Assembly: GCA_963781615.1 (NCBI GenBank)
Contig: CAWAGI010000001.1
Span: 710,793-774,792, forward strand
Direction of reading: 5' to 3'
DNA: 64,000 bases
DNA from: an uncultured Actinomycetes bacterium
Lineage (GTDB): Bacteria > Actinomycetota > Acidimicrobiia > IMCC26256 > JACDBD01
The notes under the pieces are model-generated. The model was given only the letters and a program-made list of their open reading frames with translations, was not told where the DNA came from and made no database searches. Of the stretch, positions 36,733 to 51,862 are shown in pieces. Position numbers and translations under genes: made by a program. Position 1 is the stretch's first letter. The number at the start of each line of letters is the position of its first letter.

Positions 36733-37134
36733 GGCGAGTCGGCCGGGCGGCCGCGTGCCGGGCGCTTCGGCGCACCGGCCCGAGGAACGTCCGGACTCCA
36801 CCGGGCACGGTGCTGGGTAACACCCAGTCGGGGCGACCCGCAGGAAAGTGCCACAGAGAGCAGACCGCCGATGGCGGGACCGGTCGCAGGACGCGGCCCC
36901 GCACAGGTAAGGGTGAAACGGTGCGGTAAGAGCGCACCAGCGCCCGGGGCGACCCGGGCGGCTCGGCAAACCCCACCGGGAGCAAGGCCACGCAGGGGGA
37001 GGACGGCCCGTCCGCAGACACCCCCGGGTAGGCCGCTGGAGCCGGCGGGTAACCGCCGGCCGAGAGGGATGGTCGCCACGACGGTTCCACGGAACCGCCG
37101 TACAGAATCCGGCGTACAGGCCGACTCGCCACCC
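36733..37134 (+). ncRNA. rnpB: RNase P RNA, bacterial type A
   Basis: P1 pairs GGCGAGUCGGCC (36733-36744) with GGCCGACUCGCC (37119-37130). Universal blocks are present: GAGGAACGUCCGGACUCC, CAGGAAAGUGCCACAGA, GGUAAGGGUGAAACGGUGCGGUAAGAGCGCACC and ACAGAAUCCGGC. Confidence 0.9.
37102..37134 (+). repeat. 33-nt direct repeat, copy 1 (the 3' end of rnpB; putative attL)
   Basis: ACAGAATCCGGCGTACAGGCCGACTCGCCACCC is identical to 51830-51862. The flanking bases differ on both sides. Confidence 0.9.
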
Positions 37135-37313
37135 ACCACCGCTCTGACCTGCGGAAATGCGCCGCGGAGAGGGTGTCATGATGGTGCCGGTCCCGGCGAT
37201 GAAGACGTGCGACTTGCCTTCGGACGGGAGGACCTCCTGGCCCTCGATGAGGTCGGTGACAGCGTGAGCTGGAATGCATTGCCGCCGAAGATGTCTCCGA
37301 AAGCGAGTGAGTC

Positions 37314-38759
37314 TCAGATGCCCTCGAGCATCTGCAGTCGACCGGAGCGGATCGCCTTGGCGAAGGTCTGATAATCCCGCTCGTTCTGGTCCGCGTAGCT
37401 CTCGGAGAAGTCGGCGATCGATTGATCGAACCGATCCTTTTTTCCCAGGTACGCGGCGAGTGCGATCGGGTCTCCCGATCGAGCGTGTGCACGGGCAAGA
37501 GTCCGACCGCAGATACGCGCGTAGAACTCGAGATCACCGGGCATCATCGCCTCGATGACCGCCGAACCCTTCATGTCGCGCAGTTGGCGCCAATAGAGGT
37601 AGCGGTCGGCCTCGTGACCCTTCGTCCAGCCGAGGAAGATGTCGCTCGCGGCCTGCATGAGCCGCTGTCCCTGCACCACTCTCTCACCAGGCTGCCGGTA
37701 ACGACTCTTGGGCAGATGGTCCTCGAACACCGACGCGGTGGCCTCCTTCACCTGGAGGAACAACGGGTCCTGCTGATCCCGACCCTGGAGCAGCACGATG
37801 AAGGCCCTGGTGCCGACGCTGCCGACACCCACGACCTTGCGGGCCATGTCGACCACCTCGAATCGTTCCAAGAGATGGCGCCGATCGTCTTGCAGCGTTG
37901 CCCGATACTTCCGGAACTGCTCATGGAGAATGCGCTCCATCTCCTCCGCAGAGAAGTCAAGGCGCTTCACCAAGTCGCGCATCGGGACAACGATCGGTGG
38001 CTGGCTCACGATCTGATATCGGCCGTCGACTCGTTCAGCGAGTTTTGACAGCGCCTGCAAGCTGTCGCGCGTGTGCGCCTTCTGGGCCGTCTTCTGGGCT
38101 CTCTTCTCGGCAGCCTTCGCCGCGCCCTTCTCGGTGCGCTCCAGGGAGCGAGTGGCATTCTTGATGGCATTGAATAGATCCTGCTCCGACAAGCGCGCGT
38201 ACCAGATGTCCATTGTGCTCATCTCGGCAAACCCCGCCATTGCTTCTCGATAGGCCGTTACCGATGCGAGGGTCGCGAGGCGAGCATCGGTGTTGGTGAA
38301 GCTGTTGTTGCGTGCTGCGATTGTGAAGCTTGCCGCCATGCGCTTCACGTCGTATTCGAACGGGCCAGGGAGTGTCTCGTCGAAGTCGTTCAGATCGAAG
38401 AGCAACGTTCGTTCTGGTGATGCGAACACGCCGAAATTCGACAGGTGGGCGTCACCACAGAGTTGGACGCTGAGGCCGGCCGTCGGCGTCTCAGCTAGAT
38501 CCGCTGCCATGATCTTCGCCGCGCCTCGATAGAACGTAAACGGAGAGACCCTCATGCGTCCGTGACGCACCGGCACGAGATCAGGCTCACGGGTGACGTT
38601 CTGCTCCTCCAGCAACGCGACCGGGTCTGGGCGATCGGTAACCGGTTCCCATCCTGCATGGCCCGCTGGTCCTATCTGCTGACGCGCCGCCTTTCCGCGT
38701 GCCTTTCGCTCATCAACGCTGAGATGCACGATCTTGCTCACGGACGCCCCGCCTTGCAC
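37314..38759 (-). CDS. DUF2252 domain-containing protein
   Basis: 481-aa intact ORF reading ...VRHGRMRVSPFTFYRGAAKIMAADL...VQLCGDAHLSNFG...NDFDET..., as I recall for DUF2252. Confidence 0.85.
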   Translation of the reverse strand: MQGGASVSKIVHLSVDERKARGKAARQQIGPAGHAGWEPVTDRPDPVALLEEQNVTREPDLVPVRHGRMRVSPFTFYRGAAKIMAADLAETPTAGLSVQLCGDAHLSNFGVFASPERTLLFDLNDFDETLPGPFEYDVKRMAASFTIAARNNSFTNTDARLATLASVTAYREAMAGFAEMSTMDIWYARLSEQDLFNAIKNATRSLERTEKGAAKAAEKRAQKTAQKAHTRDSLQALSKLAERVDGRYQIVSQPPIVVPMRDLVKRLDFSAEEMERILHEQFRKYRATLQDDRRHLLERFEVVDMARKVVGVGSVGTRAFIVLLQGRDQQDPLFLQVKEATASVFEDHLPKSRYRQPGERVVQGQRLMQAASDIFLGWTKGHEADRYLYWRQLRDMKGSAVIEAMMPGDLEFYARICGRTLARAHARSGDPIALAAYLGKKDRFDQSIADFSESYADQNERDYQTFAKAIRSGRLQMLEGI

Positions 38760-38866
38760 ATTGCCAAACCGATCTCCATCCTGGGTGGTCGCTAGCTTCC
38801 GGCGCCTCGCCGCTGCCTTGGATCCAGCTGATCTCGCTGCAATTGCCCTGCGCGTCGCTGGCGAGG

Positions 38867-38957
38867 CTCCGCGAAACCCGCTGGCGCAACGACACGTCCC
38901 CTTGGGTGATCGTTCCCCAGGGGGCGTCGTTGTCTCACCCAGACCCTAGCGAGGCCA
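38867..38957 (+). promoter_or_regulatory. conserved hairpin leader, copy 1 (paralog of 50186-50281)
   Basis: CTCCGCgAAACCCGC..CAACGAcACGTCCCCTTGGGTGAtcgttCCCCAGGGGGcGTCGTTGTCTC..GCGAGG..GCCAATG contains a long imperfect hairpin at 38888-38931. Confidence 0.4.
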
Positions 38958-39191
38958 ATGCCCCTTTCCTCCCGGCGAGGTGACTCTCGCGCCCTGTTGG
39001 CGTCACCGGATAAGCGAGAAGCGGTCCCGCACCGCCGATACGCGGCCTGGATTCAACACTCCCGACTCCGAACACGCGTGACTACCCCTGGGAGCCGGGG
39101 CGATGCGAAGTTCTTGATCGTGATCTCGACCCTAGTTGTCGCCGGCGTTGTTGGTGCCCTGGTATTCCGGCGACTCACCGAAGATCGCTGA
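38958..39191 (+). CDS. small membrane protein (77 aa), N-terminally extended paralog of the 29-aa peptide at 50282
   Basis: The C-terminus (KFLIVISTLVVAGVVGALVFRRLTEDR) matches MRKFFMVIAALIVAIIVGALVFRRITEDK. The start ATG sits in the same GGCCAATGC context. Confidence 0.5.
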   Translation: MPLSSRRGDSRALLASPDKREAVPHRRYAAWIQHSRLRTRVTTPGSRGDAKFLIVISTLVVAGVVGALVFRRLTEDR

Positions 39192-39387
39192 GGTGTCGCG
39201 TTCCCGCGGCTCGTGGCGACGCTCGCGATCGTTCTCGAGGTTGATGCTCGGAGGCGGAGCCAACCCGTATCGGTCACGCGCCGGACCGGGTAGTAAGGCG
39301 CGCACGGGCGAGTCGCCGCGAGCGGCTTTCCGATGCTCCGTCGCCCTTCTGGCGCGGATTCACTATTGTGAGAATGGGCAAAGTTGG

Positions 39388-51008: not shown

Positions 51009-51143
51009 ATGCCACTTGCAGCGAGACGTATGCGCCGTGGCGGCGTGGTCGGACCGGCGCCGGTCGCCCGGACTGCCGCGACAGTCGGTACGGCCGCCGT
51101 CGTGACACGTGGTGTGAGACGCCGAAGGGGCCGCCGCCGCTGA
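51009..51143 (+). CDS. small Arg-rich protein (44 aa), typical partner of DUF6325 genes
   Basis: ATGACATG forms a stop/start junction, and GAAGGAG lies 7 nt upstream. The sequence is MPLAARRMRRGGVVGPAPVARTAATVGTAAVVTRGVRRRRGRRR. Confidence 0.45.
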   Translation: MPLAARRMRRGGVVGPAPVARTAATVGTAAVVTRGVRRRRGRRR

Positions 51144-51149
51144 GGCTGG

Positions 51150-51265
51150 AACCACGATTCGATCTCCGCGTCGCCGAAACGTACCCGGTCTGGTCCATCA
51201 TCATCACTATCGACGTGCTCGTGATATGGGCGCTCACGGGGCACGGCGGTGAGATGCGTATTACT
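51150..51265 (+). pseudogene. 5'-truncated remnant of a second DUF7144-like gene
   Basis: ETYPVWSIIIITIDVLVIWALTGHGGEMR aligns with the last 30 aa of 46016..46441 (VYPIWAIIVITIDALVIWALTAHGGEMRSY). The stop codon was lost through a 1-nt difference. Confidence 0.6.
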
Positions 51266-51314
51266 GACGTCAAGAATCGGTCCGCGGCGCGCTTGGCGTC
51301 TCGACAGAGGTGGG

Positions 51315-51344
51315 CGGAGTGGGTGGCAAACGCCACCCACTCCG
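51315..51344 (+). terminator. 13-bp GC-rich hairpin (possible intrinsic terminator, no U-tract)
   Basis: CGGAGTGGGTGGC-AAAC-GCCACCCACTCCG, read directly from the sequence. Confidence 0.3.
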
Positions 51345-51829
51345 GTCCGTCGGAGGGCCCGTAAACCGCGCCAAGTCGAACTCGGCCACACGCACCGAAC
51401 AAACGCTCGCCCAGCGGTCTTCGCCCCACCCAGAACCGGCAGAGAGAGTGTCGGTGTGCGCTCCCCCACACCGCCTTCGGACCTCGACGCGTGTGTGCTC
51501 GGGGACGCGATCTCGTTGTCCTCATTGCACTTCGAAGCGGACGAAACGTGTCACGACGCTCGACTCAGGCGGCCCAAATTCGTGTCGGTGGGGCGACTTG
51601 AACTCCCACCCCTTACGGGGACTAACCCGTTCAGACGCAGCGCGAGCTGGAAGGGCGCTCGGCGTCATGACGCGCGACGCACCACGGCGCCCGGAACGTG
51701 ACAGGCGCGTCATGCTCCGGTCCGCGAAATGTCCGCGCGAGTCCGCGAAACGGGAGGGTACGGATGCGAACTACAGCGCAGTGCTTTCGCAGGTCAGAGG
51801 GCATTTAGCCATGTCAGCCGCCCCTCGAA

Positions 51830-51862
51830 ACAGAATCCGGCGTACAGGCCGACTCGCCACCC
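51830..51862 (+). repeat. 33-nt direct repeat, copy 2 (orphan copy of the rnpB 3' end; putative attR)
   Basis: It is identical to 37102-37134. No other RNase P sequence surrounds it. Confidence 0.9.

Follow-up and report, generated by a model that had tools for sequence, protein, structure and literature searches.

The 64,000-nucleotide stretch of DNA from an uncultured Actinomycetes bacterium that is analysed here (the window) contains a 14.7-kb block that starts at the 3' end of rnpB, the gene for the catalytic RNA of RNase P, and ends with a second copy of the last 33 nucleotides (nt) of this gene. We propose, with a probability of roughly 0.8, that an element was inserted into the rnpB 3' end by a tyrosine integrase, with the two 33-mers as its attL and attR cores, and that the resulting island has since decayed. 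The mechanism would be an ordinary and well-known one; its target, rnpB, apparently has not been described as an attachment (att) site. Moreover, the evidence points to a widespread class of rnpB sites in Actinomycetota.

The 33-mer ACAGAATCCGGCGTACAGGCCGACTCGCCACCC has exactly two exact copies in the window, at 37102-37134 (copy 1) and 51830-51862 (copy 2), both on the plus strand and 14,695 nt apart. No third copy exists in the window at up to 3 mismatches (0 expected from 100 shuffles) or at up to 9 (0 in 20 shuffles). The model of bacterial class A RNase P RNA (RF00010) is matched end to end at 36735-37132 (model positions 1-367 of 367), and because of the span of this match copy 1, which extends 2 nt beyond the model end, can be assigned to the 3' end of rnpB. 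In an Rfam scan of the window rnpB was the sole family matched, tRNA genes were not found in the window, and no rnpB-like sequence lies upstream of copy 2, which therefore is an isolated fragment. Directly beyond the 33 nt the flanks of the two copies are unrelated, giving sharp boundaries as for a recombination core, and the G+C content drops by 4-8 points, from 0.70-0.75 left of rnpB to 0.61-0.69 within the block. Thus, an intact RNA gene at 36735 and a displaced 3' fragment at 51830 bracket the island as direct repeats, as is typical of islands that occupy tRNA or tmRNA genes. A first-pass annotation of this DNA had reported a perfect direct repeat of the rnpB 3' end, with nothing else resembling RNase P RNA near the second copy, and had taken the repeats for att sites of an element that would be degraded or mobilised in trans. 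The observations stand, and the interpretation has gained support from integrases at the rnpB of relatives, from displaced fragments, occupied and empty sites and phage attPs, and from a conserved right arm, all of which are described below.

The duplication might in principle have arisen without a recombinase, by chance or slippage, as the target-site duplication of a transposon, or as an assembly chimera at a shared 33-mer. The window apparently stems from a metagenome-assembled genome (MAG), its nearest relatives are MAGs too, and the block carries no mobility gene. However, the shuffles predict zero chance matches, and 33 bp far exceeds the target duplication of a transposon. The only inverted repeats (12 bp) are offset by 7 and 30 nt, Pfam finds no transposase domain in the block, and the arrangement of a transposon, a target-site duplication abutted by terminal inverted repeats and accompanied by a transposase, is not seen in the window. 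Such an origin is also disfavoured by L001, the closest of the loci found from the TerC gene (loci and contigs used for comparison are given L numbers), where AraC and DUF6325 genes as in the window independently come after rnpB, and by L094, which holds rnpB and an arm of the window type on one contig. We therefore consider an origin of this kind hardly credible.

That DNA is inserted at exactly this position can be seen in metagenomes. A scan for the 32-mer of the rnpB end gave 101 contigs, 74 of which have rnpB upstream. Displaced fragments, with at least 150 nt of non-rnpB DNA upstream of the 32-mer, are present in 16, and the remaining 11 are too short to be classed as rnpB-bearing or displaced. 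Three pairs of empty and occupied sites could be assembled from such loci (L109/L171, L172/L138 and L131/L151). In the first member of each pair rnpB is followed by its flank, and in the second unrelated DNA is followed by the 32-mer and then by the matching flank, with about 99-100% identity over at least 90-150 nt in two pairs, the third being closely related. In all three pairs the similarity to rnpB begins at ACAGAATCC, within 3 nt, and this ACAGAA boundary equals that of the window. Decaying tandem relics are seen as degenerate second copies in L094, with 4 mismatches in the core, and in L151, L152 and L164. The search for an empty site in relatives that the first-pass annotation had advised was hence successful for sister islands, where three pairs share one boundary, and failed for the window island, for which no relative with rnpB abutting the 51.9-kb flank came to light.

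Relatives also carry integrases at this site. Of 56 contigs with at least 1 kb of DNA downstream of rnpB, 13 encode a tyrosine integrase in the first 2.5 kb, with a gene that begins 30-400 nt beyond the end of rnpB and mostly converges with it; an integrase follows directly on rnpB in the GTDB MAG L036 as well, whose rnpB is 90% identical to that of the window. Integrases beside rnpB in other genomes, for which a search had been suggested at the outset, are thus a reality: they lie near the att site in L036, L082, L086, L090, L117, L141, L143, L146, L150, L156 and L158, and none was found in the window. Those of L141 and L143 match PF00589, PF14659 and PF22022 (catalytic, SAM-like and central domains) and are followed by an HTH_17 open reading frame (ORF), which in L143 passes the cut-off of the NCBIfam model 'excise' (TIGR01764). 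Further on, L143 and L155 contain SLT/M23, TrbL-like and TraG-like P-loop genes, which indicate an integrative and conjugative element (ICE) of the type IV secretion system (T4SS) type. Other genes at these loci encode a DUF3631 protein (L117) and, near attR, a TIR-domain protein (L171). The integrases are at most 39% identical to cultured-phage integrases in the collection searched, the best matches being from Arthrobacter phages. Direct repeats of 8-10 bp, about 11 bp apart, form a pair or triplet within the final codons of the integrase gene, and every integrase-bearing contig has a set of its own. The repeats of L156, the closest integrase-bearing relative (rnpB 97% and left flank 84% identical), are GGTCCGT, GGTCCGCGAAAA and GTCCGCGGGAG, within the integrase 3' end (P' arm), and correspond to the motif of the window. 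Judged by this shared motif, the cognate integrase of the window island may have been L156-like and would have been deleted along with the left-arm sites.

Phages were found to carry the rnpB end in free genomes. A search of IMG/VR with an alignment of the rnpB-site integrases yielded 80 loci, several of which have the rnpB 3' end just beyond the integrase; rnpB is complete in L199 (295 bits) and cut off by the contig end in L187. In a more distant group of integrases (26-28% identity) the core reads ACAGAACCCGGCGTACAG(G/C)CCGACTCGTCTGC. Within this group L235 has rnpB upstream of the core and at least eight other contigs have unrelated sequence there; six of these were scanned with Rfam and gave no rnpB. 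The order in these contigs is integrase, a repeat pair (CTGGGGAGA twice), the 32-nt rnpB 3' end as core, and a further arm in which the same repeat pair recurs in the same orientation at -163 to -111. Since integrase, repeats, rnpB end and repeats follow one another with no rnpB gene, this arrangement constitutes an intact attP. Genes for RecT, a RecE-like exonuclease, an endolysin and a minor tail protein are present in one attP contig. In another, the 69,908-nt contig IMGVR_UViG_3300046455_000489, the initial 6,615 nt recur identically at the end (L271 10454-17068; L276 1-6615); its genome is thus a circle of about 63.3 kb, and the overlap includes the integrase and an attP with the 32-nt rnpB end. 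Temperate phages with the rnpB 3' end in their attP exist, and a free form is thereby documented for the site class, not for the window island. The 32-mer itself has no match in IMG/VR, the phage attPs having been found via the integrase only, and the core sequences gave only chance matches to cultured phages and plasmids, besides two records labelled 'UNVERIFIED: Bacteriophage sp.'. These two (L277 and L278; MT835553.1 and MT836823.1, from human faecal samples) contain complete rnpB genes of high G+C content (288 and 294 bits) with no related integrase nearby, and are probably bacterial DNA or prophage flanks.

How would the arrangement in the window have come about? By analogy with islands that occupy tRNA or tmRNA genes, the attP of the element would have contained a duplicate of the final 32-33 nt of rnpB between two arms. 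Strands would have been exchanged at, or close to, the conserved ACAGAA with which the identity block begins on its 5' side, whereupon the element's own copy and trailer would have completed the ribozyme gene and the original rnpB 3' end would have been pushed 14.7 kb downstream. Later the element would have lost its integrase and excisionase genes, which lie beside rnpB in relatives, and with them the arm repeats that lie within the 3' end of the integrase gene. Remaining in the window are the perfect cores, a right arm with three GTCCGCG repeats, a metabolic and stress-related cargo, and one pseudogene (Table 1).

In L118, L132 and L169 the DNA that adjoins the displaced fragment on its left is about 84% identical to the right arm (212 nt). 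L094 shares the core-proximal part of this arm at 85% identity over 154 nt, and L106 has an 80-nt match to it. One-nucleotide indels among the aligned contigs mark the arm as non-coding, and contigs with this type of right arm carry different cargo, where visible; in L132 it includes, by the look of the translations, a cation-efflux protein and an alcohol dehydrogenase. An ORF resembling an IS110-family transposase by eye was noticed in L106 (WNGE01000441.1, about 850-1770), some 0.8 kb downstream of the displaced fragment with its window-type arm. The three phased repeats of the window begin at -110, -99 and -89 relative to the start of copy 2, comparable with the phage attPs, whose plan this distance from the core fits, and they are putative arm-type binding sites of the integrase. 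Upstream of them the conserved arm also contains a pair, GGCGTCATGACGCGCG and GGCGCGTCATGC (51661-51716), which by eye is near-palindromic.

On the rnpB side, the trailer motif CTCTGACCTGCG lies at 37142-37153; most relatives have it after their rnpB as well. Together with its inverted partner in the right arm it forms a perfect 12-bp inverted repeat, CTCTGACCTGCG/CGCAGGTCAGAG, the members of which lie 7 and 30 nt inside the two 33-bp copies; the window has a single occurrence of each 9-bp core of the pair, CTGACCTGC and GCAGGTCAG. In the excised circle this pair would bracket the core, and motifs of the CGCAGGTCAGAG type recur in phage attPs and in arms to the left of further displaced fragments, where the pair does bracket it. 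The distances of the inverted motifs vary among elements, so that no fixed centre of symmetry can be defined; the pair may bind a protein or serve rnpB 3' processing. If, as the model implies, each integration replaces the rnpB trailer, many seemingly native trailers may be relic element arms, which would account for a motif that is conserved without further synteny. A crossover in a terminator-like hairpin downstream of rnpB was also considered and was rejected, since it is the rnpB end that the phage attPs hold and since the hairpin motif is missing from the empty site L109. A terminator scan beyond copy 1 found none adjoining the rnpB end; its single match is located about 290 nt downstream, within the DUF2252 ORF on the opposite strand.

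Could the 245-nt unit 51618-51862, that is the arm plus the rnpB 3' fragment, be a selected functional module instead, for example a small RNA gene or a terminator or processing cassette that mimics the rnpB end? A non-coding segment conserved to about 84% among contigs with different neighbours would be in line with this, as would the inverted motif pair that brackets the fragment and the three tandem rnpB pseudo-3' ends that Escherichia coli K-12 retains downstream of the gene. However, no Rfam family matches 51618-51862, the phage attPs share the architecture directly beside an integrase and with arm repeats on both sides, and the unit has decayed in L094. As the pairs of occupied and empty sites moreover account fully for the unit as attR, we regard a functional module as very unlikely.

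Turning to the cargo of the island, genes of the block were called by codon-position G+C and then assigned by Pfam (Table 1). Pieces of the glycoside hydrolase 15 (GH15)/trehalase-like gene cover positions 1-68, 81-135 and 144-305 of the profile, each in a different ORF, and given its division over at least three ORFs in different frames we consider this gene a frameshifted pseudogene. The island contains two genes of the DUF6325 family, one towards each end of the cargo, and about 800 nt of non-coding DNA separate the last cargo gene from copy 2.

Table 1. Position of rnpB, of the proposed att sites and arms, and of the cargo genes in the window
Feature	Position	Strand	Basis and remarks
rnpB, intact gene of class A RNase P RNA, the final 33 nt being copy 1	36735..37134	+	RF00010, 244 bits
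attL core, 33-bp identity block, 3' strands of P4/P2/P1 of rnpB; element-supplied in the model	37102..37134	+	Exact repeat; ACAGAA start as in three occupied/empty pairs
Left (P'-side) arm relic with trailer motif CTCTGACCTGCG; expected phased arm repeats and integrase gene absent	37135..37313		Comparison with relatives
DUF2252 protein	37314..38759	-	PF10009, E 1.8e-137; absent from the related L001 island
AraC-family regulator	39388..40425	-	PF12833/PF00165; 85% nt identity to L001, same place after rnpB
DUF6325-like protein	40614..41342	+	PF19850, E 3.9e-06; common to L001
Polyphosphate kinase 2	40838..42451	+	PF03976, E 4e-91, residues 283-507; domain in about the last 225 codons, true start probably inside the ORF
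Small membrane protein, PLDc_N domain	42851..43333	+	PF13396; segment inverted in L001
DAGK/YegS-type lipid kinase	44590..45660	+	PF00781; NCBIfam lipid kinase models all below cut-offs
DUF7144 membrane protein	45920..46441	+	PF23636, E 1.6e-36
Major facilitator superfamily (MFS) transporter	46565..47956	+	PF07690, E 7.8e-48
GH15/trehalase-like gene, at least 3 ORFs	47401..49505	+	PF19291 and PF00723 pieces
Second DUF6325 protein	50549..51007	+	PF19850, E 1.7e-10; coding-type G+C at third codon positions (GC3)
Right (P-side) arm of the element, non-coding	51618..51829		Conserved beside displaced rnpB fragments of other contigs
Three phased direct repeats GTCCGCGAAA, GTCCGCGCGA, GTCCGCGAAA (starts 51720, 51731, 51741; spacing 11 and 10 bp)	51720..51750	+	Sequence; L156 motif
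CGCAGGTCAGAG, inverted partner of the 37142-37153 motif	51788..51799	+	12-bp perfect inverted repeat
attR core, displaced native rnpB 3' fragment (copy 2)	51830..51862	+	Exact repeat; no rnpB upstream
P'-arm-like sequence: trailer motif, CTAG at integrase stop-codon position, GGTCCGT	51863..51905		Alignment with L156, L090, L120 and L036

The history of the island can be approached through its relatives. With the TerC gene to the left of rnpB as query, 80 loci of uncultured Actinomycetota, mostly MAGs of Acidimicrobiia, were obtained, and rnpB is near in only three of them (L001, L036 and L009). The closest of the loci is L001, on contig CAVTTE010000006.1, with 95% identity of the TerC protein and about 89% nucleotide identity across 8.8 kb of the left flank. 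About 70 nt after its rnpB it has the AraC gene, directly following, and the DUF6325 gene (85% identity). Its island lacks DUF2252, has the PLDc_N segment inverted and a different middle, and contains a GH15 gene collinear with that of the window; tblastx between the window and L001 is noisy in this DNA of high G+C content and usable for the GH15 collinearity only. In the tblastx segments the two GH15 genes share only 38-52% amino-acid identity. The locus of L001 ends 9.4 kb after rnpB, short of any right junction. Since a relative of about 89% identity, of another species-level lineage, holds part of the island, the latter is probably old. With regard to the wider neighbourhood, synteny with the left flank of the window is good in many contigs, whereas downstream of rnpB not one contig among about 100 is syntenic, which identifies the position as a hotspot of variability. 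The exact 33-mer found no match among genomes sampled at one per GTDB species, in which the species is thus not represented with an rnpB end identical to that of the window.

Several findings weigh against the interpretation of the block as an island inserted by a tyrosine integrase. Integrase, excisionase, conjugation and phage genes are absent from the block and from the whole window, as judged by Pfam and, for the recombination genes, by tblastn. In agreement with the first-pass annotation, which had noticed neither integrase nor excisionase, Pfam finds none on the ORFs of the block or of the rest of the window, with PF00589 (tyrosine integrase) unmatched, and tblastn of the window gives no match to seven rnpB-associated integrases (best E 0.02) or two excisionase-like proteins (best E 0.11). 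Conjugation genes (T4SS, FtsK-like) and phage structural or lysis genes are likewise missing among the block ORFs by Pfam, PHROGs not having been scanned. The rnpB side (the flank from 37135) has no pair of GTCCGCG repeats, and the tie to an L156-type integrase consists of a 7-bp motif. An empty-site allele of the window island was not found: rnpB does not adjoin the 51.9-kb flank at any of about 180 related loci, and in relatives the gene to the right of copy 2 lacks synteny. The rnpB of L001 and that of L036 are followed by the same 30 nt or so that lie right of copy 1, which alone would suggest a native flank; this is compatible with insertion of an element only if these 30 nt are element-derived, as has been shown for L036, not for L001. 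Finally, as AraC, DUF6325 and GH15 are collinear after rnpB in L001, the insertion would predate a divergence of about 11%, and yet copy 2, which is not under selection, has 0 mismatches. A perfect 33-nt copy after long residence is possible, if not expected; the tension is mild and leaves room for a more recent acquisition or for gene conversion.

Alternatively, the two repeats may not bound one element. Copy 2 with the arm to its left would then be the attR of one element and at the same time the attL of an older element on the right, and the DNA between the repeats would be a mosaic of at least two elements and rearranged DNA. This would refine the interpretation as an rnpB-site island, and we put it forward tentatively, as a possibility that is rather less than even. 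It draws on 51863-51905, which aligns with integrase-side arms, including the position of the stop codon and the first GGTCCGT repeat, the latter being the first repeat of L156. In addition, the right flank up to 64 kb is low in G+C and non-syntenic in relatives, the L001 island is without DUF2252 and has an inverted segment and a different middle, and tandem relics are known from L094, L151, L152 and L164. On the other hand, no third att copy is present in the 12 kb to the right, even at 9 mismatches, and the relic of only about 40 nt, too short for a statistical test, includes the motif found after rnpB almost everywhere. Even so, an origin of these 40 nt in a still older element seems probable to us, in which case the locus would have grown by tandem accretion; 51863-51905 is possibly a scrap of such an element, the integrase of which would have been deleted.

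Is the island still mobile? An L156-type integrase and excisionase from elsewhere in the genome or from an incoming element might excise it via the perfect cores, by mobilization in trans or in cis. The 33-bp cores are perfect, the P arm with its three phased repeats is intact and has been kept across contigs of different cargo, integrase-bearing kin target the same site in close relatives, and cis-mobilizable elements (CIMEs) are a documented class (PMC6323972). However, the rnpB-side arm lacks the repeat pair found in every intact element examined, the cargo is decaying, as seen from the GH15 pseudogene, a relative of about 89% identity has the island too, in rearranged form, which suggests long residence, and no integrase is detected by tblastn within the 64 kb. 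We hence consider present mobility improbable. Given that the left-arm repeats are missing, that one gene is a pseudogene and that L001 has part of the island, a fixed relic is more plausible than a unit which still moves, and the window island is best described as decayed, probably fixed and CIME-like, capable of movement at most if a related element with an L156-type integrase integrated alongside.

Both flanks of the locus show further peculiarities. To the left, the TerC gene (35538-36548, minus strand) and a 160-amino-acid ORF are located between the conserved left-flank genes and rnpB (35081-36700). In closer relatives (L156, L131, L173, L130, L085 and others) rnpB comes directly after the equivalent of position 35,070 or so and TerC is absent there, so that the 1.6-kb TerC segment is itself an insertion/deletion polymorphism upstream of rnpB. 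To the right, G+C remains lowered (0.64-0.70 for 51863-64000) and the DNA may consist of older island material. The first gene of this flank, for an FAD monooxygenase (51982-53139), has unrelated neighbourhoods in its closest homologues L182 and L183, where neither rnpB nor an att copy is nearby, and these consequently provide no empty site. A two-component system (56505-58615) and a 900-amino-acid ORF (59163-61865), both recognized by the look of their translation only, follow.

We somewhat favour a more general proposal, namely that the rnpB 3' end is a major and hitherto unrecognised class of att sites in Actinomycetota, used by several diverged lineages of tyrosine integrases that reside on temperate phages, T4SS-type ICEs and small integrative elements and that have an attP plan in common. 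This plan would comprise the inverted GCAGGTCAG/CTGACCTGC pair round the 32-33-nt rnpB end and lineage-specific repeat pairs in both arms, one of them in the last codons of the integrase gene. If this is true, the 3' strands of P4, P2 and P1 and the trailer of an essential ribozyme have been serially replaced by element-borne copies, and most 'native' downstream flanks of rnpB are relic element arms. The block in the window would itself be a decayed island with ordinary cargo, not an active element.

Integration into tRNA and tmRNA genes underlies island-finding tools as well as current thinking on how integrases choose conserved RNA genes. The use of rnpB would extend this rule to the catalytic RNA of an essential ribozyme, with an identity block that covers universally conserved helices, and islands at rnpB would escape methods limited to tRNA and tmRNA genes. 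The site class accounts for the hypervariable DNA downstream of rnpB in this lineage. It would also supply new integrase/attB pairs for actinobacteria of high G+C content, with an attB that occurs once per genome and changes slowly, which may be useful in genome engineering (cf. PMC12884075).

With respect to novelty, the first-pass annotation had remarked that rnpB is not a commonly described target, and the literature agrees. Full-text searches yielded no report of rnpB as an attachment site, the apparent matches being uses of rnpB as a marker gene; island databases may already list it. The TIGER/Islander catalogue assigns 33.8% of islands to tRNA and tmRNA genes, 43.4% to coding sequences and 22.8% to intergenic sites, and rnpB is not named (PMC12424338).

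Extra copies of the rnpB 3' terminus downstream of the intact gene are also present in E. coli, the one known peculiarity of an rnpB 3' end that we were able to verify. In K-12 MG1655 (L279 1335-1757) rnpB is followed by three tandem 113-bp units, each with a pseudo-3' end of M1 RNA and a terminator and consisting of AGATGAATGACTGTCCACGAC, then 18 nt in place of the ACAGAACC segment, then CGGCTTATCGGTCAGTTTCACCT and the terminator. These repeats were reportedly described by Reed and Altman in 1983, and 7 of 5,426 E. coli genomes hold a second full match to the 49-nt rnpB end. Different from the repeats of the window, however, the units lie head to tail with no DNA between them, start 21 nt further upstream and replace ACAGAACC; they have no arm, integrase or island and no established link to integration.

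Closer counterparts are the islands and prophages that tyrosine integrases place in the 3' ends of tRNA and tmRNA genes, as the Islander definition has it (PMC4383910). As in these, the window island has its ends marked by a target RNA gene restored by element sequence and by a displaced 3' fragment at the far end, the identity block reaches the 3' end of the gene, the integrase adjoins the target in relatives, arm repeats are phased and tandem accretion is found. It differs in its target, the gene rnpB for the catalytic RNase P RNA and not a tRNA or tmRNA gene, in that the copy in the window has no integrase, and in the distance of the rnpB-site integrases of relatives from the cultured-phage enzymes noted above. 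CIMEs are elements that have kept their att sites and lost their integration and transfer genes (PMC6323972), and the window island, with perfect attL and attR cores, cargo only, and no integrase, excisionase or transfer genes, answers to this description. There are also self-mobile kin at the same site, a T4SS-type ICE in L143/L155 and integrative elements in L141, L117 and L156. Unlike a CIME, the window island lacks the integrase-side arm repeats, so that its attL may not function and its mobilization is putative; CIMEs were moreover defined in ICE families of Firmicutes, at other targets.

A further comparable case is phage phiEf11, which integrates in ffs, the 4.5S RNA gene, reported in 2025 as a novel non-coding RNA target, with only tRNA/tmRNA and csRNA genes named as earlier ones (PMC12540744). 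Both cases involve a short identity block (27 nt in ffs, 33 nt in the window) in a small, essential and highly conserved non-coding RNA gene other than tRNA or tmRNA, and the attP core of phiEf11 is close to the integrase gene, as it is in the rnpB-type phage attPs. The two differ in RNA gene and phylum, and whereas phiEf11 is known from a cultured phage and its lysogen, the rnpB site emerges from uncultured genomes and metagenome contigs.

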